A stretch of 53,834 nucleotides of DNA from Candidatus Falkowbacteria bacterium (GCA_018674305.1 JABHAL010000013.1:74553-128386); one strand, 5' to 3'; numbered from the stretch's first letter, positions 9,264-53,770 are shown. Notes: generated from the sequence alone by a model not told the origin. Made by a program: numbers and translations.

Positions 9264-9899
9264 TTATTTTGACTCCTTGCGGAATTTTCCTTTCTCGGTT
9301 TGACTTTCGTCGTAAAATCGATACATTCGCACGATGAGTAAGAAGAAAATTCTGGCATCGGTCAACTTAGTTGAAATGTTGACTGTCGGTACTGGGTGTT
9401 CGTACTCGGGCCTTAAAAAGGTAACCCGAGTCTCTTGATTTTCCTGGTCATTGTTTTCAAAAACAACGTGTGCTTTTGGAAAGTCAAAGCCAGGAATGGG
9501 TGAGTGACCTTGTCTAAGAGCATTGTCCCAATGCTCCGACTCTTGCTTGGCAAAGATAAAATGTTTTGGTGTATGGTCACCTCTGAATTCATCACGAACT
9601 CTTTCAATAGCTTCTACTGAAAGGTCCGGAAAAAGTTTTATGAGTGGATCAATTGCTTTCAAAATTGTAGCCATCTCATAGTGATTGAGTAATTCACCAG
9701 TAACTAGCTTCTTTAGGTATTCTTCAATCATTTGAGGCTCTGCCGCTGGTTGAGGGTTGGACTCAAGTTTTGTTTGAGTGGTTAAGTTTTCAAAGAAGAT
9801 TACTTGCGTAACGCTGGTTTTCCCACAGTCTTCTTCAGATGGCGATTTCGGCGATCCAAAGGAGACAGTGATCACAGTGTCATCTTTTCTTAGTGACAT
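9264..9899 (-). CDS. Hypothetical protein (G+C-richer single-gene unit)
   Basis: 211-aa ORF with AGGAGG 7 nt upstream of the ATG, its own promoter and a shared terminator. No family recognised. Confidence 0.65.
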   Translation of the reverse strand: MSLRKDDTVITVSFGSPKSPSEEDCGKTSVTQVIFFENLTTQTKLESNPQPAAEPQMIEEYLKKLVTGELLNHYEMATILKAIDPLIKLFPDLSVEAIERVRDEFRGDHTPKHFIFAKQESEHWDNALRQGHSPIPGFDFPKAHVVFENNDQENQETRVTFLRPEYEHPVPTVNISTKLTDARIFFLLIVRMYRFYDESQTEKGKFRKESK

Positions 9900-9943
9900 G
9901 ATCTGCCTCCTGACTGTTTAGGTTCTTACTACGTAATTGTACC

Positions 9944-9972
9944 ATTATTACATTTTTTTATTTATTTGTCAA
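9944..9972 (-). promoter_or_regulatory. Sigma70-type promoter (TTGACA-17-TGtAATAAT)
   Basis: On the minus strand, -35 lies at 9967-9972 and -10 at 9944-9949. Confidence 0.6.
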
Positions 9973-9978
9973 GTAGTC

Positions 9979-10007
9979 TTACAATTTTCCATAAAATAAG
10001 GTATAAT
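9979..10007 (+). promoter_or_regulatory. Sigma70-type promoter (TTACAA-17-TATAAT)
   Basis: -35 at 9979-9984 and -10 TATAAT at 10002-10007. It is divergent from the previous promoter. Confidence 0.6.
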
Positions 10008-10055
10008 AGCCTTAGTTAATTTCATGAAACAAGTAAATAAGAAATAAGTAAATTT

Positions 10056-12158
10056 ATGGTCAATAAAAGGCTAGTTGTAATTTTAGTTTTATTAACATTC
10101 ATGATAAGTACCACAGTTTTTGCTGCCAGTGACCCGTATTTTAGTAAGCAATGGTATTTACAAGAAATAATGGCTCCTGATGCTTGGACAATAACCAATG
10201 GTAAATCCTCGGTTATAGTTGCAGTTTTGGATACAGGCGTTGACGTAAATCACCCAGACTTAGCTAATAATATTTGGGTTAATACAGGAGAAATTGCTGG
10301 TGATAATATTGATAATGATAGTAACGGTTATAAAGATGATCGTAATGGTTATGATTTTATTAATAATAGAGCTAATCCAGAGCCCAAGATAACTGGAAGT
10401 TTTGTGGCTAGTGCTGCTAATCATGGTACCTTTGTTTCAGGTTTGATTTCAGCGGTTCATAACAATAATAAGGGGATAAAGGGAGTGACTGCTAATGTGA
10501 AAATAATGCCTTTGGTTGTGTTAAATTCATCTGGTCTGGGAGGATCAAGTGATGTGGCAGATGCAATTGATTATGCGGTTGATAATGGGGCAGATATTAT
10601 AAATTTAAGTTTTGGTGGCGACGAGCATAGCAGTAAATTAAAAAATGCAATTACGAACGCTTACAAGAATGGAGTTTTGATAGTGGCCGCAGCTGGTAAT
10701 GCGGCAGAAGGAGAAACTAATGGAATTGATATGTCCAAAAAACCACTATACCCAATTTGCTATGATCAAGAGTTTAAAGAAAATAAAATATTAGGTGTTT
10801 TATCCAGCGATAAAAGCAATAAGGTCTCAGCTTTTTCGAATTATGGGAAAGATTGTATAGATATAGCTGCACCAGGCGAAGATATGGTTAGTTTGTTGTA
10901 TCATGATACAAATTATTCCCAGTTTGATCAGGCTTATGATACCAGTTGGAATGGGACTTCATTTTCGGCAGCATTAGTTTCTGGAGTCGCGGCCTTGATG
11001 AAATCAGCTAACAGTAATATATCTCCAAAGCAAATTATTGAAACTGTTATCCAGGAAAGTAATATGTTGTTTTTAAATAATGCTAAATGGAAGGGTAAAG
11101 CTGGCTCAGGTGTTTTAAATGCGAAAAAAGCAGTTGAAGCAGCTAACTCTCTTTCCGGTGGACAGTCCACAACTCCCTCAACCCCAAATACACCAGTAGT
11201 TTCAACTCCAGCAACTTTCTCAGTTCCAACTAATACTAAAACCGGGCCAGTTACTGGTGGTTCCGAAATTATAGTTTCTACTCAAAAGAGTGGTTATAGT
11301 TCAGTAAATTTTTATAATTCATCGTTTGGTAAAAAAGATGAGATTGAACTTATAAAAGGAGATCAATTTACCGGGTTGAATATTCAAGCAATTGATATTG
11401 ACGGGGGGGGTAAGGAAATAATTGCTGGAACTACAAGAGGCGCTCAACCATTTGTCCGAGTAATAAATCGTTCAGGTGTAATTTTGTCTAGTATTCTAGC
11501 TTTTGGTAATGATTTCAAAGGTGGAGTAGAAGTGGCTGCAGGTGACGTAGATGGTGATGGTGAAGTCGAAATAATTGCTGCTCCACAATCAGGATTTAGC
11601 CCACTAGTTAGAATATTTAATTTAAAAGGTCAGCTTGAAAAGGAATTTTTCGCTTATAACAAAAGTTACAAAAAGGGAATTAATATTGAAGTTGGTGATG
11701 TAGATGGTGATGGTAACTTGGAAATTATTTGTGCACCACATGATGGGATAATGCCTAAGATAAAAATTTTTGATCATCAAGGAAATCTAAAAAAAGAAAT
11801 TATAGCATATGCGCCACAGTTTATGGGTGGTGTTAATATTTCTGTAGCTGATGTTAATGATGATGGAGTGGCTGATATTGTGACCGGCGCTGGTGCTACT
11901 GGCGGTCCACATGTGAAAGTTTTTAAATATAATGGCTCTGTTATTGCTAGCTTTTTTGCTTATAAATCAAGTTTTTCTGGAGGAGTGGAAGTTGAAGCGG
12001 GCGACTGGGATAATGATGATGAAGTTGATATTATTACTGCGCCAGGACCAGGTGGCGGGCCACATATTAAAATTTTTACTAACATTGGAGGGTTCAAGGC
12101 TGAATTTTTCCCGTTTTCATCTAATTTCACATCTGGTATTAATATAGCTGTAATGTAA
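10056..12158 (+). CDS. Secreted S8 subtilisin-like serine protease with C-terminal FG-GAP/VCBS-like repeats
   Basis: Signal peptide ends in TTVFAAS. Catalytic triad contexts are VAVLDTGVD, HGTFVSG and GTSFSAALVSG. A Thr/Pro linker is followed by about five repeats of the GDVDGDGEVEII type. Confidence 0.88.
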   Translation: MVNKRLVVILVLLTFMISTTVFAASDPYFSKQWYLQEIMAPDAWTITNGKSSVIVAVLDTGVDVNHPDLANNIWVNTGEIAGDNIDNDSNGYKDDRNGYDFINNRANPEPKITGSFVASAANHGTFVSGLISAVHNNNKGIKGVTANVKIMPLVVLNSSGLGGSSDVADAIDYAVDNGADIINLSFGGDEHSSKLKNAITNAYKNGVLIVAAAGNAAEGETNGIDMSKKPLYPICYDQEFKENKILGVLSSDKSNKVSAFSNYGKDCIDIAAPGEDMVSLLYHDTNYSQFDQAYDTSWNGTSFSAALVSGVAALMKSANSNISPKQIIETVIQESNMLFLNNAKWKGKAGSGVLNAKKAVEAANSLSGGQSTTPSTPNTPVVSTPATFSVPTNTKTGPVTGGSEIIVSTQKSGYSSVNFYNSSFGKKDEIELIKGDQFTGLNIQAIDIDGGGKEIIAGTTRGAQPFVRVINRSGVILSSILAFGNDFKGGVEVAAGDVDGDGEVEIIAAPQSGFSPLVRIFNLKGQLEKEFFAYNKSYKKGINIEVGDVDGDGNLEIICAPHDGIMPKIKIFDHQGNLKKEIIAYAPQFMGGVNISVADVNDDGVADIVTGAGATGGPHVKVFKYNGSVIASFFAYKSSFSGGVEVEAGDWDNDDEVDIITAPGPGGGPHIKIFTNIGGFKAEFFPFSSNFTSGINIAVM

Positions 12159-12228
12159 AATAAGCTATTTACAATCTAGAGAATTTAGTCTAAACTAATA
12201 CATTAATACAATAATTTATTCTTTCCCT

Positions 12229-12684
12229 ATGATAGAAGATGTAAAGATTAAGCCTTTAAAAAAATACTGTGACGATCGAGGGTTTTTTACAGAAGTAATC
12301 AAGGAGGGGGAAGACACTTTTCATCCTGTTAAACAAACAAGCTACACTGAGACTCATCCTGGAGTAATTAAAGCTTTTCATTGGCACAAAAAACAATGGG
12401 ATGTCTGGTTTGTTCTAAAGGGCATGGCGCAGGTGGTACTTTATGATTTGCGTTGGGGCTCTCCAACCCGAGGAAAAACTCAAGTGATTTGTGCCGGTGA
12501 GGACAATCCATGTTTAATTTCCATTCCACCGGGAGTAGCTCACGGTTATAGAGTTTTAGGTAATCAAAAAGTTGGACTTTTATATCACACAAGTGAGGTC
12601 TACAATCCTGCTGAGCCAGATGAAGAAAGAATTCCATTTGATGATCCTCAAATTAGTTTTGATTGGTCCACTCAAAATCGTTAA
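12229..12684 (+). CDS. rfbC: dTDP-4-dehydrorhamnose 3,5-epimerase (short cupin form)
   Basis: 151 aa with DDRGFFTE, FHWHKKQWD and PPGVAHGY motifs. Confidence 0.8.
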   Translation: MIEDVKIKPLKKYCDDRGFFTEVIKEGEDTFHPVKQTSYTETHPGVIKAFHWHKKQWDVWFVLKGMAQVVLYDLRWGSPTRGKTQVICAGEDNPCLISIPPGVAHGYRVLGNQKVGLLYHTSEVYNPAEPDEERIPFDDPQISFDWSTQNR

Positions 12685-12729
12685 TTATTTCGACTTGTGT
12701 CGAAATTGAAAAATAAAAAATAAAAAAAT

Positions 12730-13302
12730 ATGGAGAACAAAGAGCAGATTGTATTTGCTCCATACGATCGGATTTTAAAATATGCTCTTCCGCTCGTACC
12801 AAAAAGTGTTAAGCCTAACCACCTAACGTTTATTCGGTTAATTTTTTCTCCCATCTTAATTGTTTTATTGGTGGGAGACGAATTTCTGATAGCTATAATT
12901 CTATTTGTGATTTTAGCTATCACCGACATGCTAGATGGGACGTTAGCTCGCTTGCGTAATCAGATTACTGATTGGGGAAAAATATGGGATCCGATCGCGG
13001 ACAAATTATTGATTGGAATTGTAGTAGCAACTTTATTGCTACAGATTAATCTGAATTTAACTATTTTATTGCTAGCCTTTGAGCTGGCTTTTATTTTGGG
13101 CGGAGCTTTTAGTCGAATGAAGCAGATAGAAGTGATGGCCAATGTTTGGGGTAAAATCAAAATGAATTTACAGTGTTTTGGTGCTGGCTTTTTGATGTTG
13201 GGTTTTATGTTAAATATAGGTTTACTGATTTTCTTGGCTCAGGTTTTACTATACACCAGTATCGGTTTTGCTTCTCTCAGTATGTTGAAAAAAGGAATAT
13301 AA
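12730..13302 (+). CDS. CDP-alcohol phosphatidyltransferase family protein
   Basis: DMLDGTLARLRNQITDWGKIWDPIADKL fits D-x2-DG-x2-AR-x8-G-x3-D-x3-D. Multi-TM protein. Confidence 0.85.
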   Translation: MENKEQIVFAPYDRILKYALPLVPKSVKPNHLTFIRLIFSPILIVLLVGDEFLIAIILFVILAITDMLDGTLARLRNQITDWGKIWDPIADKLLIGIVVATLLLQINLNLTILLLAFELAFILGGAFSRMKQIEVMANVWGKIKMNLQCFGAGFLMLGFMLNIGLLIFLAQVLLYTSIGFASLSMLKKGI

Positions 13303-13339
13303 ATTGATATATTGTTAAATTGCTAAACTGTTTAGGAGT

Positions 13340-13717
13340 ATGGAAAAAAAATATTTGGGATTAAAAGATATTAGTGCATATAATATAGCCTTTGATTTAT
13401 CTAATGATGTTTGGGAAATTGTAGTTAGTTGGGATTATTTTGCTAAAAATACTGTTGGTATGCAATGGGTAAGATCAGTTGATTCTATGTCGGCAAATAT
13501 TGCAGAGGGTTTTGGGCGATACACAAAGAAGGATAAGATAAAGTTCTATCGATATTGCTTCGGATCTTTGAAAGAATCTCAAGATTGGTTAGAAAAGGCT
13601 AATATTAGAAAATTTATTTCAGAAGACCAGTATAAGTACATTGAAGGTAAATTAAGCGGTCTACCTCGGGAAATGAATCATTTGATTAAGTATACAAACG
13701 AAAAATTAGAAATATAA
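13340..13717 (+). CDS. Four-helix-bundle protein (23S rRNA intervening-sequence protein family)
   Basis: 125 aa. ANIAEGFGRYTKKDKIKFYRYCFGSLKESQDWL resembles the family core NIAEG.GR....F...A.GS..E. Confidence 0.7.
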   Translation: MEKKYLGLKDISAYNIAFDLSNDVWEIVVSWDYFAKNTVGMQWVRSVDSMSANIAEGFGRYTKKDKIKFYRYCFGSLKESQDWLEKANIRKFISEDQYKYIEGKLSGLPREMNHLIKYTNEKLEI

Positions 13718-13734
13718 ATTATTAAATTGTTTAA

Positions 13735-13790
13735 ACAATATAACAATATAACAATATAACAATATAACAATATAACAATATAACAATATG
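13735..13790 (+). repeat. Tandem octamer (ACAATATA) x ~7 running into the HIT start codon
   Basis: Units start at 13735, 13743, 13751, 13759, 13767, 13775 and 13783. The last unit supplies the ATG at 13788. Confidence 0.95.
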
Positions 13791-14198
13791 ACTAACTGCT
13801 TGTTTTGTAAAATTGCTAGCGGAGAAATTCCTTCTCAAAAAATTTATGAGGACGATGATACTTTAGCATTTCTAGATATTAATCCAGTGAATCCTGGACA
13901 TGTTTTAATAATTCCCAAAGAACATTTTGTTAATATGGCAGAGGCTAGTGGAGAGGCATTACGGAATTTAATTAGCGTAGCGCCAAAAATTGCCAAAGCT
14001 GTTTGTGAAGCCCTTGATTATAAGGGTTATAATTTCAGTACAAATAATGGTGGCATAGCCGGGCAGGAAGTGATGCATTTACATTTTCATATTATTCCTC
14101 GTAAGAAAGATGATGGTCACCCTAGGTTTATTAGAGGTGGATATGAGGAAGGACAAATGGAGGAAATAGCCTTGAAAATAAATAAAGCATTAAAATAA
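13788..14198 (+). CDS. HIT-family nucleotide hydrolase/transferase
   Basis: CLFCKI start and the histidine triad HLHFHIIPR. Confidence 0.9.
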   Translation: MTNCLFCKIASGEIPSQKIYEDDDTLAFLDINPVNPGHVLIIPKEHFVNMAEASGEALRNLISVAPKIAKAVCEALDYKGYNFSTNNGGIAGQEVMHLHFHIIPRKKDDGHPRFIRGGYEEGQMEEIALKINKALK

Positions 14199-14205
14199 AA
14201 AAAGT

Positions 14206-14424
14206 ATGAAAGATGATGACATTCTAAATGTTTCAGAGGCTGAGTTAAAAAAGTATGAACAGGCTATGAACGATCCTCAGCAACGAGTGAAAATTTTGAC
14301 TCAAATCAAAAAAGTATTTGAGGGATTTATGTTCTGGAAACAAACAACATCTAAAAAACAACAAGTTGCTGAAGAAGCAGAACAAGATATTGATAAAGCA
14401 CGCGATTCAATAAAAAATTTATAA
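14206..14424 (+). CDS. Hypothetical small helical protein
   Basis: 72-aa ORF tightly packed between the HIT gene and the 771-aa ORF, with gaps of 7 and 1 nt. Confidence 0.55.
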   Translation: MKDDDILNVSEAELKKYEQAMNDPQQRVKILTQIKKVFEGFMFWKQTTSKKQQVAEEAEQDIDKARDSIKNL

Positions 14425-14425
14425 T

Positions 14426-16741
14426 ATGGAAAATAAAAATAGAATAAATATTTCAGAGTTGGACTTTCCCGATGATAGCAAGATTGAAAACCTCAATAAG
14501 GGAATGAAACCTGATTTGCCAGAAGGTAAAAAAGGAAAGTTAAAACCCGCTGAGGGCGAAGTGGAAACTTATAAAGGAATCCCTTTCGCTCCGCACAAAA
14601 AAGTGATAGTTACCGAAACACTATATGACATTATAATTGAAGAAGTTTGGGCGGAAAAAATAAAAAAACAAACTGAAATTGTCCGAGAACGGGTAAAAAC
14701 CGTTCCTATTGTTGAAATTACTGACGTTCCAGCAGGTGGAGAGGCTGAATACGAACAACTTTACGACGATAAAGGTGAGCCGATTCCAGATAAAGAATTG
14801 CCAACACCAAGAGTCAAAAGAACTGAACATGAATTCTCATCTCGTGAAGAGGCAGAAGCCTATGCTTCTGAAAAAGAAGCTGAAAGATTACTTGAAATTA
14901 CCAAAGAAATGGCTGGTGTTGCTAGAGAAGACCAAAAAGGTTTTATGGGTTATTTACGCAATAAAGGTCATCATTTAACAAAAAATGTTAGAGCTGGATT
15001 GGCTGCTTTAATGTTGTTAGTCCCAGTTGGTTCTATGGCCAAGGAGTATTCACAAACTAATGATCAACAAAAACAGGAACAAAGCTTGACTCAAGATGAA
15101 TTGGAGCTTATTCAAAGATATACAGATGAAAGTGGTAATACGATACATGGATTACATCAATATTTGACATCCCCGTATACATCACCAGAAGAAAGATTAA
15201 AAATACTTAAAGAGTTAAAAGAGAAATATGGAAAAGGAACTGAAGAGGGTGGAAAAAGCTTGGAATTTTCTATTCCTGTTGGTTTAGATATTGTCGAAAC
15301 AGAAAAAGAAGTAATACCAGACAGCGAAGCTCCCCCAGATGAAGCTCAGTTTGATATTAAAACTACTTTTGAAGAGTTGGAAGTAAAGACTCAAGAAAAA
15401 TTACCAGACAGAGTTGAGTTACAAGATGTTGAAAAGTCAATTTTTGAAGGTGGCGGAGTACGCATTAAATCTGATCGTTCACCAAAGTTTGAAGCTAAAG
15501 ATATGAGTGAACAAGATGTTGAGAAAATTAAACAAGCCATTTTAAATAAGGCGTTAACTGTTTTAGCAGAAAACAATGTTGATCCAGCAGAAGCTTCACT
15601 TACTTTAGTTGTTAGAGGTTTAGTAAGTCCCGAGGGGAATGCAAAGAAAAATAAAAATTTAAAAGATGCTAGAGGAAAGGGGGCGACTCAAATTGCAGAA
15701 AGCCAGCTGGATAAAATTAAGGCTGAGTTAGGAGTTGAAGATATTACAGTTGAATATGATACTGAAAATGGTGACGAGTTTGCTCGTCAAGTAAATGAGC
15801 AAAGAGAGCAGATTAAAGATATTTTTGGTATCGAATTAGAAAGTGAGTTAGTTAAATTTTTCAAAGCATATAATCGTGGGCAACTTGATTTAAGTAAATA
15901 TTCTGGAGAACAAGTGTCATTTCTGCAATCTGTTATGGATGAAGGTCGGGGAGCGGAAGTAGAAGTTTTCGTAAGTGGCACGGGGCGTTCGATTGAACCA
16001 AAAGTAGTAGAGGGCGAAACAGTTGAAAAAACAATGAAGGTTCCAGTACCAAAAATTGAAGTGATTGAAACAGGAAAAGGTGGAGGTGAAGATTTTACAA
16101 AAAAAGAAACAGAAGTTGACGTTAAATGGAAGAAGGTTAAAATAAATTTACCTCCAACTCAAGAAAAAGAAGTTACTCCAGATTCAAGACAAGATCCAGC
16201 TATCTTGGTTGAACATCATGGTGTGCAAGATCCGCAGATTCATTTTGAGCGACCAGCGAAAATTAAAAAAGGAAAAAGGGTAGTTCGTTATGATGAGAAA
16301 AGAGAGGTTGATGTTGACACGAAAGAAGGTGAAGAGGTTGATATAAAAAGACGGGTTAGGCGAATCAGAAAAGACGTTCCACCACCACCGCCACCACCAG
16401 GCAAATTGGCGGAGACAGCTCGTGGTACTCTGACTGATCCGCGACAGGCAACAAAAAGAAAAACATTATCCAGTGAAAATATTGGTAAGGGCGCACGTGG
16501 TGTGCGAGGGGAAAATGTTCGTAAACCTAAAAAAGAAGATGTGCGTGGTCAGACCGGTCGTCAAGAAAAAACAGACATTCACGGTGACGCAGTTGATTTA
16601 CCACGAGAAGCATTTATCAGTAAACGAACTGTGACTGGTAAGAAACGCGAACGTAACCTCAAAAAGAAAGAATGGCAAGCACCACGTCGGAAGAGACGAA
16701 AGTCTGTGCGGGCGGAGAAAGAGAAAGAGTTAGATTCGTAA
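14426..16741 (+). CDS. Hypothetical 771-aa highly charged protein with one TM segment, a poly-Pro tract and a basic tail
   Basis: Long ORF with a hydrophobic segment GLAALMLLVPVGSMA, a PPPPPPP tract (nt 16379-16399) and an Arg/Lys-rich C-terminus. No family recognised. Confidence 0.75.
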   Translation: MENKNRINISELDFPDDSKIENLNKGMKPDLPEGKKGKLKPAEGEVETYKGIPFAPHKKVIVTETLYDIIIEEVWAEKIKKQTEIVRERVKTVPIVEITDVPAGGEAEYEQLYDDKGEPIPDKELPTPRVKRTEHEFSSREEAEAYASEKEAERLLEITKEMAGVAREDQKGFMGYLRNKGHHLTKNVRAGLAALMLLVPVGSMAKEYSQTNDQQKQEQSLTQDELELIQRYTDESGNTIHGLHQYLTSPYTSPEERLKILKELKEKYGKGTEEGGKSLEFSIPVGLDIVETEKEVIPDSEAPPDEAQFDIKTTFEELEVKTQEKLPDRVELQDVEKSIFEGGGVRIKSDRSPKFEAKDMSEQDVEKIKQAILNKALTVLAENNVDPAEASLTLVVRGLVSPEGNAKKNKNLKDARGKGATQIAESQLDKIKAELGVEDITVEYDTENGDEFARQVNEQREQIKDIFGIELESELVKFFKAYNRGQLDLSKYSGEQVSFLQSVMDEGRGAEVEVFVSGTGRSIEPKVVEGETVEKTMKVPVPKIEVIETGKGGGEDFTKKETEVDVKWKKVKINLPPTQEKEVTPDSRQDPAILVEHHGVQDPQIHFERPAKIKKGKRVVRYDEKREVDVDTKEGEEVDIKRRVRRIRKDVPPPPPPPGKLAETARGTLTDPRQATKRKTLSSENIGKGARGVRGENVRKPKKEDVRGQTGRQEKTDIHGDAVDLPREAFISKRTVTGKKRERNLKKKEWQAPRRKRRKSVRAEKEKELDS

Positions 16742-16754
16742 TATTCGCGTAGAT

Positions 16755-44172: not shown

Positions 44173-44179
44173 AAACATA

Positions 44180-46338: not shown

Positions 46339-46390
46339 GGAATAAAAAAACGACGAACACAAGTTCATCGTTTTTTTATGGCTCGGGGAC
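46339..46390. repeat. Direct repeat copy 1 (terminator plus the last 12 nt of tRNA-Gln)
   Basis: 52 nt, identical to 46524-46574 except for one extra A in the A-run. Confidence 0.9.
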
Positions 46391-46523: not shown

Positions 46524-46574
46524 GGAATAAAAAACGACGAACACAAGTTCATCGTTTTTTTATGGCTCGGGGAC
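46524..46574. repeat. Direct repeat copy 2 (terminator plus tRNA-Gln 3' end)
   Basis: See copy 1. Confidence 0.9.
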
Positions 46575-46636
46575 TAGGAATCGAACCTAGATTGCCTGGA
46601 CCAAAACCAGGTGTCCTACCATTAGACGATCCCCGA
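46563..46636 (-). tRNA. tRNA-Gln (anticodon UUG), CCA encoded
   Basis: Hand-folded cloverleaf: acceptor TCGGGGA/TCCCCGA, D arm GTCT-AATGGTA-GGAC, anticodon arm CCTGG-TTTTGGT-CCAGG, T arm CTAGG-TTCGATT-CCTAG, discriminator G, then CCA. Total 74 nt. Confidence 0.85.
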
Positions 46637-46774
46637 ACGGATTAAAGTTCAAAGTAGGAAATTCAATTTAACTAATAATATACTAGCTTAATTTTTTATG
46701 AAAGTCAAGGTTGAAAAAGAGGAAGTAGGTTTATTGATTGAAAAATGTTGTTATTCTTGTTATATTCTAGTTAT

Positions 46775-47344
46775 ATGAAAAAAACTTATTTAGTTACAAT
46801 TATCGTATTATTGATCGTGTTAATTTTAGCAGTACTAACAGTGCTATATTATTTAAATCAGACCGATGAAGGTTTTTGCTTTGGTGGAAAGTGTAATGAA
46901 CAGCCTTTGGAAGGCCAAGTTAACGTCACAGATTACGATTCTTGTGTAAAAGCTGGATACCCGATAATGGAGAGCTATCCTGAACAGTGTAGTGACGGGA
47001 CAAATACTTATGTACACAAGTTGGACAAAATATTATTAGAAAATTTAAAATCAGGACAAGAAATTTCCAGTCCTTTGAAGATAACTGGTAGCGCACCTGG
47101 TGATTGGTATTTTGAAGCTGATTTCCCAGTTGTCCTCACTGATTGGGATGGTTTAATTATTGCTGAGGGATATGCTGGAGCTATTGATAGTTGGATGACG
47201 GAAAGGTATGTGCCGTTCAAAGCAACTTTAACTTTTGAAAAACCTACTTACAAAAATAATGGCACTTTAATTTTTCAAAAAGACAATCCTTCCGGTTTAC
47301 CGGAGAATGATGATTCTTTCGAAGTTCCAATTTTGTTTAAATAA
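46775..47344 (+). CDS. Gmad2 immunoglobulin-like domain protein, membrane-anchored
   Basis: Start set at MKKTYLVTII. The C-terminal block is ITGSAPGDWYFEADFPVVLTDWDGLIIAEGYA...VPFKATLTF. Confidence 0.65.
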   Translation: MKKTYLVTIIVLLIVLILAVLTVLYYLNQTDEGFCFGGKCNEQPLEGQVNVTDYDSCVKAGYPIMESYPEQCSDGTNTYVHKLDKILLENLKSGQEISSPLKITGSAPGDWYFEADFPVVLTDWDGLIIAEGYAGAIDSWMTERYVPFKATLTFEKPTYKNNGTLIFQKDNPSGLPENDDSFEVPILFK

Positions 47345-47345
47345 T

Positions 47346-47507
47346 ATGAAAAAAATAATACTGACAATTTGTTTGTTGTTAGTTTTGCTATTAGGAATTT
47401 TGATCATTGTATATGCTGGAATTGATGATAGTCCTGGTGGTCAAATGATTGGCGTGATTTTAATTGTTTTTAGTATTGTTTATTCAATAAAGCTTATAAA
47501 AAAATAG
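47346..47507 (+). CDS. Small two-TM membrane protein
   Basis: 53 aa starting at ATG 47346, 1 nt after the upstream stop. The track start at 47307 overlaps the previous gene. Confidence 0.55.
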   Translation: MKKIILTICLLLVLLLGILIIVYAGIDDSPGGQMIGVILIVFSIVYSIKLIKK

Positions 47508-47513
47508 CTGTGT

Positions 47514-48611
47514 ATGAGAAAAATAATCCTAATAATTTGCATACTATTAATTTTACCTAACTTTGTTTTTGCTCAAGAAGCTGAGCAGGTTTTTAAGGCT
47601 GAAGTTTTGGAAGTTTTAGCTGAAAAAACGTTAGAACGAGAAGACGGCTCAACCGTTCTTCAGCAGAATATACGATTAACAGGATTAGACGGTGAATTCA
47701 AAGATCAGGATTTTATTATCAATGGAGTAAGTGATATTGATGTTTTTAAATCAGTCACTGTGAAAAAAGGGGATAAGGTTTTTGTGGCTAGGGCAGTCGA
47801 TTTTGAAGGTAATGAAAAATTTTATTTAACCGACTATGAGCGAACCGGCTGGCTATATTTCCTAGCTTTTCTGTTTGCCTTGTTAATTGTTCTGGTGGGA
47901 AAGAGACGCGGTCTATTAGCCTTACTTAGTTTGATTCTGACGTTTTTGGTTATCATGAAATTTGTTATCCCTTTAATCCTTGCTGGATATTCAGCTATGC
48001 TGGTAAGTATCTCGGGTGCTTTAATTATTCTGGGGCTAGTTATTTATGTAACCTGGGGATTTAAATTAAAGGCGCATATTGCGGTCATAAGTATTTTTAT
48101 TAGTTTATTTATTACTGGCCTGATTTCTATAATTTTTTCAAAACTTACTCATCTAACAGGTTTGGCTTCAGAAGATGCTTTGTTTTTAATCAATCCGAAC
48201 AGTCCTCCAATCGATTTATCTGGTTTATTGTTGGCTGGAATTATAATCGGGACGCTGGGTGTTCTCGATGATGTAGTGATTAGTCAGATTTCGGCCGTTG
48301 AACAACTAAAAGCAGCTAATCCAAAGTTAAAAGGCAAGGAACTTTACAAAAAGGCAATTCATATAGGTATTGATCACATAAGTTCGATGACTAACACTTT
48401 GTTTTTGGCTTATGCTGGTGCAGCTTTGCCGTTGCTACTTTTGTTTGGACAGGGTGGTGCTCAGCAAGTTGGCTTTACAGCAGTTATAAATAATGAACTT
48501 ATTGCTACAGAAATTGTTCGAACTTTGACTGGTAGTATTGGTTTGATTCTAGCAGTTCCGATTTCAACGGTGTTAGCAACGCGGTGGTTGGTGAAGAAGC
48601 ATAATAAGTGA
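47514..48611 (+). CDS. YibE/F-like membrane protein
   Basis: Signal peptide, extracytoplasmic N-domain, then multiple TM helices with GTLGVLDDVVISQISAV. Confidence 0.65.
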   Translation: MRKIILIICILLILPNFVFAQEAEQVFKAEVLEVLAEKTLEREDGSTVLQQNIRLTGLDGEFKDQDFIINGVSDIDVFKSVTVKKGDKVFVARAVDFEGNEKFYLTDYERTGWLYFLAFLFALLIVLVGKRRGLLALLSLILTFLVIMKFVIPLILAGYSAMLVSISGALIILGLVIYVTWGFKLKAHIAVISIFISLFITGLISIIFSKLTHLTGLASEDALFLINPNSPPIDLSGLLLAGIIIGTLGVLDDVVISQISAVEQLKAANPKLKGKELYKKAIHIGIDHISSMTNTLFLAYAGAALPLLLLFGQGGAQQVGFTAVINNELIATEIVRTLTGSIGLILAVPISTVLATRWLVKKHNK

Positions 48612-48639
48612 TAAGTATTAAGTGTTGAGTATTGAGTAA

Positions 48640-48666
48640 GAACCCTTTTTAAAAGGGGTTTTTTAT
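48640..48666 (+). terminator. Intrinsic terminator
   Basis: AACCC...GGGTT stem followed by T6. Confidence 0.6.
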
Positions 48667-48671
48667 TGCTA

Positions 48672-48700
48672 TTGACAAAATATATATTTTGAGATAATAT
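48672..48700 (+). promoter_or_regulatory. Sigma70-type promoter (TTGACA-17-TAATAT) containing a 16-bp palindrome
   Basis: -35 at 48672-48677 and -10 at 48695-48700. CAAAATAT/ATATTTTG lies at 48676-48691. Confidence 0.6.
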
Positions 48701-48736
48701 GACCAGTCCGCTAACTTGACCTAAAAAGGAGGGGAA

Positions 48737-49141
48737 ATGAGAGGACAAAAAGGGTATACTTTGATTGAGTTGATGATTGTGGTTGCGATCATCGGGATTG
48801 TAGCAGTTGGTATCTGTTACTTCTTGGTAATCAAGGGTGTACTTCAAGGAAACTTTTGGACGTTTCCTGAAAAGGCACAACTGCAGTGTGTGCAACGATT
48901 GGATCCATCAGCGGATGAGATCACTTATCGCGAACGTACACTCTTTGCCCTGTCGCCAACTGAAGTGAAAAATGCGAATGGTGATAAGGTGACTTACTAT
49001 CTGGACACCAATATTTTGCAGAACTGTACTGCATATTCAGATATCGAAGGTGAAAAGAAGGAAGTACTTTTGCCCAAGCCGAAGCCTAAGAAGACAGAAA
49101 GTTCGGAGACTAATCAGTCGAGTTCTGCTGTTCAGTACTAA
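48737..49141 (+). CDS. Type IV pilin-like protein (prepilin N-terminal methylation motif)
   Basis: MRGQKG/YTLIELMIVVAIIGIVAV has Glu at +5. AAGGAGGGG lies upstream. G+C-richer than the flanks. Confidence 0.7.
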   Translation: MRGQKGYTLIELMIVVAIIGIVAVGICYFLVIKGVLQGNFWTFPEKAQLQCVQRLDPSADEITYRERTLFALSPTEVKNANGDKVTYYLDTNILQNCTAYSDIEGEKKEVLLPKPKPKKTESSETNQSSSAVQY

Positions 49142-49149
49142 TGAAACAT

Positions 49150-49182
49150 AGCCCAGGTAACATTGTTACTTGGGCTTTTTTG
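49150..49182 (+). terminator. Intrinsic terminator
   Basis: An 11-bp stem GCCCAGGTAAC/GTTACTTGGGC followed by T6. Confidence 0.85.
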
Positions 49183-49305
49183 TTTTGACTAAATTAAGGA
49201 AATTAGGTAAACTTGAGGTAAGAAAATAGGGCTAGACGGGGCTAAACAAGAAAACAGGTTATAATAATCTTGCTATCTTCTTATCCCTTCTTATCCCTTC
49301 TTCCT

Positions 49306-50937
49306 ATGTCTCAACAAGAAAACAATGTTTGTTGTCGAAATATAACGATCATAGCTCGCTATGTCCAACAAGTTTTGGGTAGTGACGTTTTGTTGTTGGA
49401 AAATTTACCATACTCAGTTGAATATTTAAAAGATGAACACAATTGGATTCCTTTGGAGGTTTACGGACAGATAATTCGGCGGGCAATAGAATTACTTAAA
49501 GATCCAGAAGCGCCATTCAAGATGGGTTTATCTGCTCAGGAGCTGGAGTCTTGGGGTGCATTTAAATATTTACAAAAAGTATTTGGTAGTGTGATTTTCG
49601 GGCCGATTGAAGTGTATAAACAGGTCGGAAAGTACAACGAGTTTTTCAATCGGACTAAAGATTTAATTGTTTGCAAAACAGGAAAAGACCATTGTTACAT
49701 AAAAGTTAAATTCAAAAATAATGTTAATGCGGTTAGTGATTATTTTAGTGATGCCTTTATCCGCGGTATTCTTTGCGGTGTGCCTAATATTTGGCATTTA
49801 CCACAGGCAGTGTTGCAAGAACCATTATTAGGATTTGAGCTCGAATATTTATTAAAAAAAATTGGCAAAGTCTCAGGTAAAAAAATTGAAGTTAAAGAAA
49901 ATGAATTTTATTTAGATGATCAATTAATTGCTCAAAAAGTTGTACTACTTTCTGAAACTGTAAAAGGTGAACCACTGTATATTGGTAAATATCGGGAGAT
50001 TCACAAGGGAGACAAGTTGGACACCTTCAAGTTTGGTTGGCGAATTTTGCATGATCAGGAAATTAATGAACAGTTGAGAATAAAAAGAGGACAGATTTAT
50101 AGCGCGCCATATTTTGTTTATAAACTTTCGTGGCAAACCCTTAGTTTCTGGCGCAAAATTTATCAGTTAACTGTGCACAGTTTTATTAGTAAGCGAGCTT
50201 ATCGTGAGGGCATTGAGTCGCAGTTAGCAACTATTCGTAATTATGTAGAAACTTTGGAGGACAAGGTTGTAGAGCGGACTAAGCAGTTAAATGAAGCACG
50301 TAAAGAGTCTGATTATTGGCGAACAGAAACTGAAAAACTTTTATATACAATGGTCCCGAAAAAAATCGCTGAACAAATGTTGTTGGGTAAGCTGGTGGCG
50401 GAAGAAATTGAAGGCTCTGTTGTTTTTACGGATTTGACCGGGTTCACTGAATTCAGTCGCAATTTGGAACCACAGCAAGTAAGTGATGTTTTGACTAAAT
50501 ATTTTACCAACATGAGTAATATTATTTCTAAACATGGTGGCTGGGTTAATAAGTTTATGGGTGACGGAATTTTAGTTTTGTTTGGATTGCACGGTCAGGG
50601 TAAACATGCCGAACGAGCGGTTCGGGCCTCTATTGAAATGCAACAAGCTATGGAAAATTATACTTGGCAAAAACGGATTGGTGTAGCAACAGGTAAATTC
50701 ATCACTGGTGAGTTTGGAACAGATCAACTTCGGAAGTTTGATTGTCTTGGTCATGTAGTAAATCTAGCCAGTCGTTTACAAAGTAATTCAGAGTCAGATG
50801 ACATTATGGTTTGTAATCGAACTTATAATACTTGCAAAGATGAATTTCAATTTTCTGAAACTATAAAAATATCACCCAAGGGAGTGGGGGATATTGAGGT
50901 TTATACTGTGAAGTATAAAGAAAAATTTTCAATTTAG
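49306..50937 (+). CDS. Class III adenylate/guanylate cyclase with a ~330-aa N-terminal sensor-like domain of unknown type
   Basis: Start set at the first ATG, 49306. A coiled-coil signalling helix is followed by VVFTDLTGFTEF, KFMGDGILVLFG and GHVVNLASRLQS. Confidence 0.85.
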   Translation: MSQQENNVCCRNITIIARYVQQVLGSDVLLLENLPYSVEYLKDEHNWIPLEVYGQIIRRAIELLKDPEAPFKMGLSAQELESWGAFKYLQKVFGSVIFGPIEVYKQVGKYNEFFNRTKDLIVCKTGKDHCYIKVKFKNNVNAVSDYFSDAFIRGILCGVPNIWHLPQAVLQEPLLGFELEYLLKKIGKVSGKKIEVKENEFYLDDQLIAQKVVLLSETVKGEPLYIGKYREIHKGDKLDTFKFGWRILHDQEINEQLRIKRGQIYSAPYFVYKLSWQTLSFWRKIYQLTVHSFISKRAYREGIESQLATIRNYVETLEDKVVERTKQLNEARKESDYWRTETEKLLYTMVPKKIAEQMLLGKLVAEEIEGSVVFTDLTGFTEFSRNLEPQQVSDVLTKYFTNMSNIISKHGGWVNKFMGDGILVLFGLHGQGKHAERAVRASIEMQQAMENYTWQKRIGVATGKFITGEFGTDQLRKFDCLGHVVNLASRLQSNSESDDIMVCNRTYNTCKDEFQFSETIKISPKGVGDIEVYTVKYKEKFSI

Positions 50938-51088
50938 AATTTTCAATTTTCAATAAATTTTTAGTTTTCAATTTACAATTTTGTATTTGTTTGAAAATTA
51001 GAATATTATAAATTTATTGAAAATTAGAAAATTGATAATTGCAAATTTTCATAATAGTAGCTAGAATTAGCTATTTTTTGTTTACATG

Positions 51089-51117
51089 TTGACAAATTAT
51101 AAAATTTGTGCTATAAT
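51089..51117 (+). promoter_or_regulatory. Consensus sigma70 promoter (TTGACA-17-TGcTATAAT)
   Basis: -35 at 51089-51094 and -10 at 51112-51117. The palindrome ACAAATT-ATAA-AATTTGT lies at 51092-51109. Confidence 0.7.
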
Positions 51118-51158
51118 ACAACTTCAATAACTGTTCATTTAACTTACAGGAGGTCAGC

Positions 51159-51437
51159 ATGACCAGAGAGCAAGTTGCATCTTTGATCCGCTGGCCCATG
51201 ATTATTTGGGCCTTTGGAATCATTAACGTTACGGCTATGTTGCCACAGTTGTGGCAGTTGATTCAGACGCAGGAAACCAAGGGGCTTTCTGTGGGGATGT
51301 TCTTCATTTATGGATTCATCCAGATCGCATTTGCGTTGGAAGGCTACTTCAAGCGCAACACTGTGCTCTCGGTTTGTATGACCTTGAGTGCAATGGTCAC
51401 GGCTGTAACTATTACTTTGTTTTATTACTTTCAATAG
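51159..51437 (+). CDS. SemiSWEET / PQ-loop three-TM transporter
   Basis: 92 aa with three hydrophobic helices and LPQLWQLIQTQETKGLS. AGGAGG lies 6 nt upstream. Confidence 0.6.
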   Translation: MTREQVASLIRWPMIIWAFGIINVTAMLPQLWQLIQTQETKGLSVGMFFIYGFIQIAFALEGYFKRNTVLSVCMTLSAMVTAVTITLFYYFQ

Positions 51438-51448
51438 AGAGGGATAAC

Positions 51449-51808
51449 ATGATTGGACTTTCTGTTTCATTCTGTGTTCGGGACATTGCCAAGGGCGAGG
51501 TTGCCTTGGCTGACGTAGACAAGATCATCGGCAGCACTCGTGCGGTAACTCCTGAGAATTGGGAGCAGGTGATCGCCCATTACAAGGAGACCTACTGGAG
51601 CTGGGATGATTGCACTCCAGAAAAGGGAGAGGCGGTCTTGCGTCAGTTGTTGGCCGAGGGCAAGATCGAACAGCCTCGTCTCCTGGACGATCGGAATTAC
51701 CCTTGGCTTGGGAATCGCAAGCACTGGGTGGACTCGGAGGACGAAATTCTCTGGGGGGAGATGAGCTCCGAGCGCTACGATCGATTGAAGGCTGAGGGAC
51801 GACTGTAG
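51449..51808 (+). CDS. Hypothetical protein (G+C-rich)
   Basis: Start set at ATG 51449 with GAGAGGG upstream. The track's 51251 start overlaps the SemiSWEET gene in another frame. No family recognised. Confidence 0.6.
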   Translation: MIGLSVSFCVRDIAKGEVALADVDKIIGSTRAVTPENWEQVIAHYKETYWSWDDCTPEKGEAVLRQLLAEGKIEQPRLLDDRNYPWLGNRKHWVDSEDEILWGEMSSERYDRLKAEGRL

Positions 51809-51820
51809 TTCAACTTTTGC

Positions 51821-51857
51821 CCGGCTGTACGCAATGCGTACAGCCGGTTTCTTTTTT
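51821..51857 (+). terminator. Intrinsic terminator
   Basis: A 12-bp perfect stem CCGGCTGTACGC-AAT-GCGTACAGCCGG followed by TTTCTTTTTT. Confidence 0.9.
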
Positions 51858-51942
51858 AAAAATTAAAAAGATCACTTTATGATCCTTTTTTATTTGGAGT
51901 TTGTTTAGGATTTAGAGTTTAGAGCTTAGAATTTAGTTGTTT

Positions 51943-53400
51943 TCAGGAAGCATCTAACATTACCTGCCAGTTATTTTCCACAGCGTGTTCAAGTAATTCG
52001 TGGTCTGGATTAACAGCACAAGGATGTTTAACTAAACTTAAAAATTGTAAATCAGAGTAACTGTCAGCATAAGCAAAACTTTTGTTTAAGTTAACACCTG
52101 TTCGTTTGGCAAATTTTGAAATAAGGTCAGCTTTTTTATCTTTGTAACATAAACATGGAGTTTCTCCAGTGTAACAATGATTAACCGTTTTTAGTTTTGT
52201 ATCTAGGCTGGCATTAGCCTTTATGAATCTCTTGAATTCCTTGGCCAGTGGATGAATTACTTCTGAAACCAAAATTATCGAATGACCAGCTTCGGCGTGA
52301 TCTTTTAAAATTGGGAAAAAGCCATATTGGACTTTGTGTAACATTTTCTTTTGAAAAGCTTCATGTACATAATGATCAAGCTCGGCCATGTCCCAACCAT
52401 TCAAAACCATTAATGATTGTTGCATCAAGTCTTTGTGAGGTAGGTGATGAGTTTTTTCCATAAATAGCCAATAGAAAATTTTAAAAGCTTCTTTGGCTTT
52501 AATCTTATGTAAATACATCAGGTAGGTAATAAGATCTTTTTGAGAAAGCCCCTCGTAAATAGTTCTATCAATATCTACAAACACACCAACGTTCTTTGGG
52601 TTCTGTTTATAAAGTGGTGGTAGATATCGGTGTGGTAAATGCTTCACAATTTGTTTTTCAATCTTGTCCCGCAAATTAAGAACTTTTGGCCGTTCAAATA
52701 GTTTAGCGTTCGGATCAGGTTTAATTGGTTTACCAAAGCTAAATAAAACAGTACCTGGGTGAAGACTACTTTCGTCTGGAAAAACCTGGTCTGCATTTAC
52801 TATGGAAACCGGGATGATTGGAGTGTGCGATTTTAGACTTATTCGAGCAGTACCAGTATGGAAATAATGTAGAACATGTAATTTTTCAATGTGACCTTCA
52901 GGAAAAATAATTAGACTGTGACCCATCTTCAAGTGATTAACTGCTAATTCAATTGCTTGATGTTTATTATTAGCTTTAGGATAGCTTTGAGCGTCAATCT
53001 GGTCGCGGATTACATCAATGGCCTCCATTTTTTTGACCCAGGTTTTCAAAATTGGGGGAAATGCCTGGTTGGGCATGGTGAATAATACTGTTTTGTGACC
53101 AAGTATAGCAAACAACATGAAGCCATCCATTTCACTGGCATGATTTGCTGCATAAATGTTTCCACCTTGAGTGTTTGTTTGTTTTGCTTGTTTTATTTTT
53201 AATTTAACACCATTAATATTGAAAGTAGATACCACAATCCAGTGGGCGACTTTTCGCCACAGATCTCCACGGGTAGCAGGCGCATAAAACTTTTCTAAAA
53301 TTAAAACAAAGGGTAACAAAACAAAAGTTAGCATTGCCAAATCAATTTTAAGCAAAGTCCCATGAAAACGGCCAAGTTTTTCATGCATTTTTTTAGTCAT
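51943..53400 (-). CDS. Fusion of a lysophospholipid acyltransferase (PlsC-like) and a HAD-family phosphatase
   Basis: The N-half has NHASEMDGF (HX4D) and IFPEGH. The C-half has VFVDIDRTIYEG (DxDxT) and ADSYSDLQFL. Confidence 0.7.
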   Translation of the reverse strand: MTKKMHEKLGRFHGTLLKIDLAMLTFVLLPFVLILEKFYAPATRGDLWRKVAHWIVVSTFNINGVKLKIKQAKQTNTQGGNIYAANHASEMDGFMLFAILGHKTVLFTMPNQAFPPILKTWVKKMEAIDVIRDQIDAQSYPKANNKHQAIELAVNHLKMGHSLIIFPEGHIEKLHVLHYFHTGTARISLKSHTPIIPVSIVNADQVFPDESSLHPGTVLFSFGKPIKPDPNAKLFERPKVLNLRDKIEKQIVKHLPHRYLPPLYKQNPKNVGVFVDIDRTIYEGLSQKDLITYLMYLHKIKAKEAFKIFYWLFMEKTHHLPHKDLMQQSLMVLNGWDMAELDHYVHEAFQKKMLHKVQYGFFPILKDHAEAGHSIILVSEVIHPLAKEFKRFIKANASLDTKLKTVNHCYTGETPCLCYKDKKADLISKFAKRTGVNLNKSFAYADSYSDLQFLSLVKHPCAVNPDHELLEHAVENNWQVMLDAS

Positions 53401-53511
53401 ACAATAAGTTAAAAGTTGAAAGGTAAAAGGTAAAAGTAATTACTTGAAACTGATGATTGAAAATATATTTTAGACTTTTACTTTTATTCATTATACATTT
53501 TTTTTAACATC

Positions 53512-53540
53512 TTGACAAAATGAAATACACATGTTAAATT
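53512..53540 (+). promoter_or_regulatory. Sigma70-type promoter (TTGACA-17-TGtTAAATT)
   Basis: -35 at 53512-53517 and -10 at 53535-53540. Confidence 0.55.
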
Positions 53541-53596
53541 TCTTTATCAACCGAATGTTCTTTAATTTTGCCTTAATGGCGTAACGGGAGAATAAA

Positions 53597-53770
53597 ATGA
53601 CAGAGCAGTTTAGCTTAGCAAGCTGGTGTCAGGCGGAAGTGGAAAAAGATAGACGTGCTTGGTGGCTGGTTTTCCTTGTCCTTCAGTTCTGTTTATTGGG
53701 TTTAATGATTGACAGTTTTTTCATTACCAACTTTGTGAGTGTAATGCAAAAGCAAATACATCCTGTGTAG
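53597..53770 (+). CDS. Small ORF of 57 aa with one TM helix, absent from the ORF track
   Basis: Encodes MTEQFSLASWCQAEVEKDRRAWWLVFLVLQFCLLGLMIDSFFITNFVSVMQKQIHPV. GGGAGA lies 6 nt upstream and the promoter about 55 nt upstream. Confidence 0.4.
   Translation: MTEQFSLASWCQAEVEKDRRAWWLVFLVLQFCLLGLMIDSFFITNFVSVMQKQIHPV

Follow-up and report, generated by a model that had tools for sequence, protein, structure and literature searches.

The DNA examined here, called the window throughout, is a 53,834-nt stretch from a Candidatus Falkowbacteria bacterium (GCA_018674305.1, JABHAL010000013.1:74553-128386), and our subject is how its genes mark their translation starts. The starts fall into two classes: a native majority that lacks a Shine-Dalgarno (SD) site, and a minority led by one. 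The 53.8-kb window has 36.6% G+C. Its G>C skew is very strong and constant (11,841 G versus 7,879 C), and the + strand carries about 80% of the genes. Pfam families recognized in it comprise dnaE, dtd, thrS, an S8 protease, rfbC/B/D-A, HIT, murA, an S41 protease, rplI, pyrG and a cyclase, together with DUF4012, DUF5663 and PEGA proteins. With one genome per species considered, the nearest matches of pyrG were metagenome-assembled genomes (MAGs) at 82% and 72%, followed by dozens of Patescibacteria/Parcubacteria MAGs at 55-67%; the host is therefore a bacterium of the Candidate Phyla Radiation (CPR), of the Parcubacteria type. The SD-led units and the native class are given below by coordinates and strand (ORF, open reading frame; GC3, G+C fraction at third codon positions; TM, transmembrane; cNMP, cyclic nucleoside monophosphate).

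9264..9972, − strand: SD unit; promoter 9972-9944 (TTGACA-17-AATAAT, TG), SD AGGAGG at 9906-9911 with a 6-nt spacer; ORF 9264-9899 (−), 211 aa, no family, GC3 0.387, using the bidirectional terminator 9226-9252 in common.

18878..20495, + strand: bicistronic unit; promoter 18878-18906, leader hairpin 18943-18957, SD AGGAGA at 18958-18963; ORF 18970-19680 (+), 236 aa, GC3 0.25; then hairpin 19699-19715, weak SD AAGGTG at 19771-19776, Nudix-like ORF 19782-20462 (+), GC 0.485, GC3 0.405, and terminator 20472-20495.

37201..37794, − strand: cNMP-binding gene; ORF 37201-37782, 193 aa, GC3 0.418; SD AAGGAGG at 37788-37794 with a 5-nt spacer.

37908..38701, − strand: SD unit; promoter 38701-38673 (11/12, TG), SD AAGGAGG at 38551-38557 with a 9-nt spacer; ORF 37942-38541 (−), 199 aa with an N-terminal TM helix, GC3 0.375; terminator 37936-37908.

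42953..44207, + strand: DUF4419 unit; promoter 42953-42981, SD AAGGAGG at 43015-43021 with a 5-nt spacer; DUF4419 ORF 43027-44172 (+), 381 aa, GC3 0.432; terminator 44179-44207.

48672..49176, + strand: pilin unit; promoter 48672-48700, SD AAGGAGG at 48726-48732; type IV pilin-like ORF 48737-49141 (+), GC3 0.444; terminator 49150-49176.

51089..51847, + strand: bicistronic SemiSWEET unit, the most GC-rich SD-class unit of the window; promoter 51089-51117 (12/12, TG), SD AGGAGG at 51148-51153; SemiSWEET ORF 51159-51437 (+), GC3 0.60; then SD-like GAGAGGG at 51437-51443, ORF 51449-51808 (+), 119 aa, GC3 0.66, and terminator 51821-51847 with 9 G-C pairs.

1593..53400, both strands: native class; about 33 genes with no SD, GC3 0.19-0.37.

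38729..42902, + strand: representative native unit; perfect promoter 38729-38757, terminator 42879-42902.

SD strength was scored as the duplex energy (dG) of the 20 nt upstream of a start with ACCUCCUUU. Values of dG <= -10 kcal/mol were taken as strong and about -7 as moderate, and native starts lay above -6.5. Across the 45 gene starts scored, the distribution was bimodal. Seven starts had a strong SD (5308, 9899(−), 37782(−), 38541(−), 43027, 48737 and 51159), which in all but 5308 was AGGAGG or AAGGAGG at a spacer of 4-9 nt, mostly 5-6. Moderate SDs preceded 18970 (AGGAGA), 51449 (GAGAGGG) and 53597 (GGGAGA), and the AAGGTG of 19782 was weak (dG -3.9). About 33 genes had no SD and scored above -6.5, with the sole exception of 13340, where AGGAG directly abuts the ATG and is too close for SD action. 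Of the 1,616 ATGs that the window contains, just 1.3% reach dG <= -9, which puts strong SDs at 7 of 45 starts beyond chance (p = 2e-6). A first-pass annotation of the window had described many SD-less genes with A/T-rich leaders, which the scan bore out, and ten ORFs with a canonical SD; six of the ten were strong and two moderate (18970 and 51449), while 19782 was weak and 53597 belongs to a broken gene (below).

Silent-site composition separated the sets as well (GC3 0.42-0.44 versus 0.28, p = 4e-5 to 6e-4). The ten ORFs had a GC3 of 0.444 versus 0.275 for the rest and a GC of 0.435 versus 0.358 (Mann-Whitney p = 4e-5 each), and the strong-SD set differed likewise (GC3 0.419 versus 0.279, p = 5.5e-4); G+C at first and second codon positions did not differ between SD and native classes. 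The proposal that the SD ORFs are G+C-richer thus holds for them as a set, with 18970 at native GC3. The codon shift was global: C/(C+T) was 0.41 versus 0.22 and G/(G+A) 0.46 versus 0.26, TTA usage was 0.12 in the SD class versus 0.40 in the native class, and CTC, TCG and GCG were raised. SD-class proteins also contained less Lys and more Arg. The shift is compositional, not tRNA-matching. The third-position G-C skew of SD genes tracked the replication strand, as in native genes. Over the whole window the GC skew ran at +0.2 to +0.3 and the third-position skew flipped sign with gene orientation, a strong replication-strand mutational bias; no switch of skew occurs, and therefore neither origin nor terminus lies inside.

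Promoters with at least 10 of 12 matches to TTGACA-17-TATAAT precede 9899, 18970, 38541, 43027, 48737 and 51159, the leaders of the SD units are about 40-90 nt long, and hairpin-plus-T terminators follow 9264, 20462, 37942, 44172, 49141 and 51808. Strong GC hairpin terminators had been noted in the first-pass annotation and were confirmed at these six sites (10-13-bp stems); the accessory functions it had listed were also recovered, namely a pilin, SemiSWEET, Nudix-like, DUF4419 and cNMP-binding proteins and proteins without a family. The sigma-70 promoters that it had assigned to the SD ORFs were present at six units, but equally good ones lie upstream of SD-less units (38729-38757 with 12/12, 53518-53490, 24996 and 20515); therefore, promoter quality does not separate the SD class from the native class. 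Nor are the units as monocistronic as had been supposed, since 18970+19782 and 51159+51449 each form a two-gene unit. Similar GAGAG-loop hairpins, GTCGG-GAGAG-CCGAC (18943-18957) and GTTGGG-GAGAG-CCCGAC (19699-19715), lie in the leaders of 18970 and 19782, and this pair may be a shared regulatory or processing element.

The native class, whose members include dnaE, dtd, thrS, the S8 protease, rfbC/B/DA, HIT, murA, S41, rplI, pyrG, YibE/F, the cyclase and a HAD-acyltransferase, has a start context of its own. T stood at -1 in 29 of 32 native starts versus 2 of 10 SD starts (Fisher p = 5e-5), with leaders in general at about 35% T. The 30 nt upstream were 80% A+T in native genes versus 59% in the SD class, the frequency of A reached 0.4-0.56 at -14 to -2 of native starts, and the predicted fold of -30 to +33 averaged -3.6 kcal/mol in native genes versus -10.8 in the SD class (p = 5e-6). 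In the representative unit, the promoter at 38729 heads four SD-less genes (38828, 39360, 40784 and 41807), each preceded by an A/T-rich leader and T at -1. Leaderless transcription was rejected as the cause of T at -1, because positions -12 to -7 hold no fixed -10 box and many native genes are internal to operons. SD-poor starts were likewise found in the relatives L002, L086-L088, L096 and L098 (described below), and across 71 Parcubacteria loci T occupied -1 at 57% of starts, reaching 80-100% in several, some of them G+C-rich.

A/T-rich tandem repeats with a period of 7-10 nt and 2-7 copies end 0-25 nt upstream of 11 native starts and of no SD gene. The arrays lie at 1563-1590, 7365-7381, 10027-10053, 12196-12215, 12709-12730, 13300-13332, 13734-13789, 37039-37068, 40752-40784, 49277-49302 and 53406-53437. 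At the HIT gene, seven copies of AACAATAT run directly into the ATG. Of 50 tandem-repeat arrays, 34% fall in intergenic DNA, which makes up 11% of the window.

Conservation was followed in about 200 kb of syntenic relatives of this one 54-kb window. L002 was found via pyrG and spans 23-46 kb of the window. A single sample yielded L086 and L088 at equal coverage, and the two together represent the closest relative, with native proteins 81-99% identical to those of the window; L087 and L098 both come from another single sample, and L090-L097 were retrieved with the cyclase. The native genes of L002 had an identity to those of the window of 0.32-0.47 at 4-fold sites, versus 0.30-0.37 by chance (K ~1.3, near-saturated), and those of L087 an identity of 0.28 versus 0.23 (K ~2.2, saturated).

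Most SD units were found again in these relatives. In L086 the 9264 orthologue, 65% identical in aa, shares promoter, leader and CAGGAGG with the window gene. The Nudix-like gene lies between rfbB and rfbD/A both in L086 (GGGGAG; GC3 0.41 versus 0.27) and in L087 (AGGAGG-5-GTG; GC3 0.74 versus 0.43). L002 has an SD-led gene at the position of the cNMP gene (13542-14105; AAGGAGA-5-ATG, 34% aa identity, GC3 0.26 versus a background of 0.22) and at that of 37942 (14269-14949; AGGAGG-6-ATG, GC3 0.41 versus 0.22), the latter with weak local similarity only (E = 4e-5). Its DUF4419 orthologue (19614-20756) is 67-68% identical in aa and has GGGGAGGGGG before the start in a leader that is otherwise unalignable (GC3 0.30 versus 0.22). 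A pilin stands upstream of the cyclase in L095/L096 (GGAGG-5-TTG; GC3 0.67 versus ~0.31) and in L097 (GGGAGG). A GC3 excess was likewise seen in L096, L098 and L090 for another SD-led family, whose proteins of 164-188 aa are 30-41% identical. In six further loci the GC3 difference was +0.16 for SD-led genes versus -0.02 for the others (p = 0.0015), and T at -1 occurred at 0.2 versus 0.71. The two start classes are real and reproducible.

The leaders of orthologous cassettes could not be aligned, yet in 14 of 16 cases GGAGG still stood before the start with a spacer of 5-6 nt. Retention of motif and spacer amid unalignable leaders and saturated silent sites indicates purifying selection on the SD, and therefore a usable anti-SD probably exists in this lineage. 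The SD consensus A-GGAGG-T is the exact complement of canonical CACCUCCU. At gathering score, Rfam recognized tRNA-Gln only in the window and no 16S rRNA, no conserved 16S 3' region was met in a scan of 81 related loci (1.25 Mb), and rplI was the only ribosomal protein gene in the window or the fetched loci. The distinct initiation regime that had been offered as one explanation of the SD ORFs is supported by these data, in that the SD, the -1 base, leader A+T and start structure all differ and the SD is kept in orthologues.

The other explanation on offer, recent horizontal acquisition, is refuted for most cassettes. As judged by synteny in relatives with near-saturated or saturated silent divergence, 9264, 19782, 37201, 37942, 43027 and the pilin do not appear recent. 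The SemiSWEET+119-aa pair with its SDs occurred in the window genome and L088 only; it was absent between the cyclase and the HAD-acyltransferase in L090, L093, L095/96 and L098, and therefore represents a younger insertion. ORF 18970 was missing from L086 and L087 and looks like a younger gain. The pilin was absent at its place in L090, L093, L094 and L098, so the synteny check showed both patchy units (the SemiSWEET pair, pilin and 18970) and syntenic ones (9264, Nudix-like, cNMP, 37942-like and DUF4419). Variable genes are not all SD-led, because L086 also lacks the 269-aa ORF 16755-17564 (region 16742-17779) and the 23S-rRNA intervening-sequence (IVS) protein gene at 13340 (13340-13717), both with native-type starts; a G-rich GGGGAGGGAGGG at 17673-17684 is missing there as well.

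That the SD genes as a whole are recent, unameliorated imports whose SDs are non-functional relics of the donor is accordingly very improbable. Their atypical silent sites and global codon shift, the promoter and terminator owned by each unit, and the confinement of the SemiSWEET pair to the window genome and its closest relative would all fit such an origin, as would the IS200-type transposase adjoining DUF4419. Against it, six cassettes are syntenic in the distant species just named, and the SD is kept at its 5-6-nt spacer while the surrounding leader is randomised. Exact-sequence copies of every cassette protein were found on 9-37 contigs from many metagenomes, as many as for native genes (19), and no close homologue appeared in any donor, phage or viral contig searched. 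The IS200-type Y1 transposase itself (44299-44715, − strand), which sits between DUF4419 and a LytR-like gene, is absent at the corresponding junction of L002, where DUF4419 is present, and is therefore a later insertion in the window lineage.

Sources outside the clade were sought by homology. DUF4419 has 40 relatives only, scattered over Ktedonobacteria, Kitasatospora, Myxococcota and one contig (L082), and those outside the clade are at most 50% identical. L082 (GCA_964388055.1, CAYLXU010000012.1) has 43% G+C, shares the strong G>C skew of the window and carries a 47% DUF4419 homologue; AAAGGAGG is found at nearly every small gene on it, following a ~15-nt leader motif that recurs (TTCAGTYCNTTGAR), and an SD-using CPR lineage or a mobile element are candidates for its identity. 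The youngest cassette, the SemiSWEET pair, is also the most GC-rich. The SD units probably have a foreign or mobile-pool origin, which is compatible with the global codon shift and the scattered DUF4419; the Lys and Arg contents, the patchiness of the pilin and 18970 and the high G+C of the youngest cassette point the same way. A phage or defence origin was rejected: no PHROG matches were obtained except for the generic pilin N-terminus, PADLOC recognized only the cNMP domain of 37201, and the four cassettes searched had no relatives on viral contigs. Integron cassettes were set aside without a formal test, as no integrase was among the Pfam matches of the window and the units are scattered with their own promoters.

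A native, long-resident SD class without any horizontal origin, its SDs and G+C-rich silent sites kept by selection on mRNA structure or stability or by GC-biased gene conversion at recombining loci, is a substantial but less likely alternative. GC3 excess and SD persist over saturated divergence at roughly constant odds (Nudix, the 164-188-aa family and the pilin, three lineages each), the families are small and clade-restricted, and the third-position skew of SD and native genes alike depends on the replication strand. Faster divergence of cassettes is also to be expected of recombining or diversifying loci: against the closest relative, three of four cassette proteins of the window had an aa identity of 0.65-0.74 versus 0.81-0.99 for their neighbours (SemiSWEET, 0.91), and 4-fold identity, where measured, was 0.47 for cassettes versus ~0.62 for neighbours. 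However, the codon shift takes in CTC, TCG, GCG and AAG, which are typical of G+C-richer genomes, beyond the tRNA-matched codons. The SemiSWEET pair, pilin and 18970 truly differ in presence among the genomes compared, DUF4419 has a scattered distribution over phyla, rplI, a gene expected to be well expressed, is native-like, and other Parcubacteria have no link between SD and GC3.

On balance we consider it somewhat probable that two start modes coexist in this genome, a native default and a set of autonomous, probably imported SD cassettes. In the default mode, which would serve about three quarters of the genes including every housekeeping gene, initiation would be SD-independent: the 30S subunit may be recruited via an open, A/U-rich, poorly structured leader, and UAUG may fix the frame, with U(-1) probably pairing with A37 of the initiator tRNA as the fourth base pair. 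In the SD mode, a canonical A-GGAGG-U located 5-6 nt upstream of a minority of genes would pair with a standard anti-SD. The SD genes would form self-contained accessory units, each with its own sigma-70 promoter, one or two ORFs and a strong terminator. Because their silent sites are G+C-richer and their start regions more structured, these genes are probably unable to work in the default mode and need the SD. Their arrival was most likely staggered, from sources that use SDs and are richer in G+C: most units would predate the divergence of several related species, and the SemiSWEET pair would have come later. Inheritance would since have been vertical, apart from some gains and losses, and the units would be kept as the SD route still works.

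Several results weigh against the coexistence of a native default with imported cassettes. The classes overlap, in that 18970 (GC3 0.25) and 5308 (0.28) combine an SD with native GC3 and both the 259-aa gene of L088 and 12730 are GC3-richer yet without an SD; the starts assigned to 38541, 51449 and 5308 were chosen partly by their SDs. Use of the SD by the ribosome is suggested by its conservation, and SD-like 5-mers inside native genes showed a weak, non-significant depletion relative to synonymous-codon shuffles (z = -0.6 to -1.7). No donor was found for any cassette among the homologues examined. With few members that seem not to occur outside this clade, the Nudix-like and 119-aa families fit long residence better than import. 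The GC3 excess persists at saturated sites (4-fold GC of the Nudix gene in L087, 0.82 versus ~0.6; L096, 0.67 versus 0.31), where neutral amelioration of a single old transfer should have erased it; an ancestral transfer at GC3 ~0.6 is arithmetically compatible with L002 (K ~1.3) and hard to sustain versus L087 and L096. Finally, no GC3 excess in SD-led genes was found across 71 Parcubacteria loci analysed with a crude ORF caller, and the SD-GC3 link is therefore a property of this family-level clade. SD frequency in 71-80 Parcubacteria loci was 5.2% versus an interior null of 1.9%, with longer upstream gaps at SD-led genes. We regard as unlikely a stable dual start code in the clade, in which the silent sites of the SD class would be held G+C-rich by selection or biased gene conversion and the two classes would use different mechanisms or ribosome states, partitioning core from accessory (largely envelope/signalling) expression.

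Two further loci had been counted with or beside the SD ORFs.

5292..6408, + strand: exception; ORF 5308-6408, 366 aa with an N-terminal TM helix, GGAGGG at 5292-5297 with a 10-nt spacer, GC3 0.275.

53576..53834, + strand: broken gene matching residues 1-86 of a 259-aa L088 protein, with TAA at 53582-53584 and TAG at 53768-53770.

The gene at 5308 had been set apart as an SD-bearing exception, and its GGAGGG does score dG <= -10; public gene calls place the start at 5236, and therefore its SD status is uncertain. Its leader contains a G+C-rich element at 5197-5253 (GGGCGAGTATTCGAGCCCGGCTCCGCGCCAGCGGCCC ... GGGGTGGGTGGGCGGG); the fold of 5140-5310 gave z = -2.3, and the element had no Rfam match. 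ORF 53597-53770, claimed as an SD ORF, is one fragment of a gene with two in-frame stops that is intact in L088 (4420-5199), and the GGGAGA upstream of it is former coding sequence. Fragments of 57 aa and 173 aa of the broken gene are called likewise on an independent JGI contig. Most public assemblies of the organism stop within about 1 kb of the right end of the window, which suggests that the region just beyond it is variable or repeated.

To the left, four more units with promoter, SD and terminator stand in a row at 5803-7800 of L085, within the 8.4 kb that adjoin the window (L085 8409 = window 1). They comprise a 136-aa ORF (GGAGGGG), a pair of small lipoprotein-like ORFs of which one is uncalled, and a 150-aa multi-TM protein (GC 0.52, GC3 0.66). 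Because leader and terminator sequences are common to two of the units, these look like tandem duplicates. The opposite of an SD cassette was seen in L098, where the seven-gene block 2830-7254 is an A+T-rich island of GC3 ~0.2 in a genome of GC3 ~0.42, all of its starts being SD-less with T at -1.

In PADLOC, the cNMP domain of the 37201 protein matched the sensor part of Pycsar effectors (PycTIR, E = 4e-14), the protein has no TIR or TM effector part, and a class III cyclase (49306-50937) sits 11 kb off. This is too little to establish a Pycsar system. At window 6471-6884, an orphan strong promoter (6471-6498; TTGACA-16-TATACT, TG) stands at the head of a 476-nt gap before dtd-thrS. The gap contains a weak Rfam match to a T-box leader (6597-6795, +; 28 bits, E = 7.8e-4, gathering score 93), which ends in a terminator-like hairpin plus T at 6852-6873, and a candidate T-box riboswitch may control dtd-thrS in this CPR genome.

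CPR bacteria account for much of bacterial diversity, but hardly any have been cultured and little has been described of how they begin translation. If the coexistence of a native default with SD cassettes is correct, SD loss in Parcubacteria is not all-or-none: a usable anti-SD would serve a compositionally distinct accessory set, while the core genome would rely on an unstructured leader and U(-1). Gene calling in such MAGs would then need two-model start prediction; public gene calls disagree at 5236/5308 and 51251/51449. The system would also offer a handle on how foreign or mobile genes remain expressible in an SD-poor host, and it raises the evolutionary question of why a GC3 excess survives saturated silent divergence.

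The closest functional parallel is found in Bacteroidia (Flavobacterium johnsoniae, Prevotella), which have mostly SD-less, A-rich, unstructured leaders and a small SD set (PMC13000457, PMC9976891, PMC3155529). Their initiation rests on upstream adenines and low structure (PMC13000457, PMC3155529), and SD-anti-SD pairing permits initiation in moderately structured leaders (PMC3155529). The anti-SD of Bacteroidia is present but sequestered by bS21/bS18/bS6, leaving the ribosomes SD-blind. In the window, unlike in Bacteroidia, 15-20% of genes have a strong SD conserved at the optimal spacer, not rpsU and a few others, and the phylum is different. SD genes are not as rare here, with 7 strong and 2-3 moderate among 45 and others in the 8 kb that precede the window; native starts are marked mainly by T at -1 (91%) and not by particular upstream adenines. 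One alternative is that the SD genes make up a translational regulon, switched as a group and served by ribosomes in a special state, for example with the anti-SD freed as happens in Flavobacterium when bS21 is lacking. The genome is otherwise SD-free with a native start context resembling that of Bacteroidia, the SD is conserved at the optimal spacer, such a switch exists in Bacteroidia for SD-bearing mRNAs (PMC9976891), and bS21 is often absent in Parcubacteria (PMC9297842). We nevertheless hold this to be quite unlikely: no shared class-specific motif was found, the products are mixed (pilin, SemiSWEET, Nudix-like, DUF4419, cNMP-binding and unknowns), the promoter type is common to both classes, and 15-20% of genes is far above the one or few SD genes of Bacteroidia.

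A Parcubacteria subgroup reported to be without an anti-SD (Tsurumaki et al. 2022, PMC9297842) belongs to the same broad group, and the genome described here is SD-poor, as are all 71-80 related loci screened; just 48% of Parcubacteria 16S genes carry CCTCCT according to that paper, which is not known to describe a minority SD gene class or its composition. Unlike in those bacteria, the conserved A-GGAGG-T here implies that a standard anti-SD has probably been kept, and the prediction that SDs are not under selection fails, with GGAGG kept in orthologues. Horizontally acquired islands and phage morons resemble the SD units in being self-contained, with atypical silent sites, accessory functions and some patchiness. 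Unlike islands and morons, the units are scattered singly, are mostly syntenic and have an old atypical composition, and no integrase, attachment-site or phage link was found. For the native starts, the counterpart is the U(-1)-A37 pairing of E. coli and chloroplasts, in which U is likewise favoured directly 5' of the start codon and, in E. coli, quadruplet pairing with the initiator tRNA has been shown (PMC10018350). In E. coli, U(-1) modulates initiation modestly in addition to the SD, whereas in the genome described here, by analogy, it would be a main determinant of SD-less starts.

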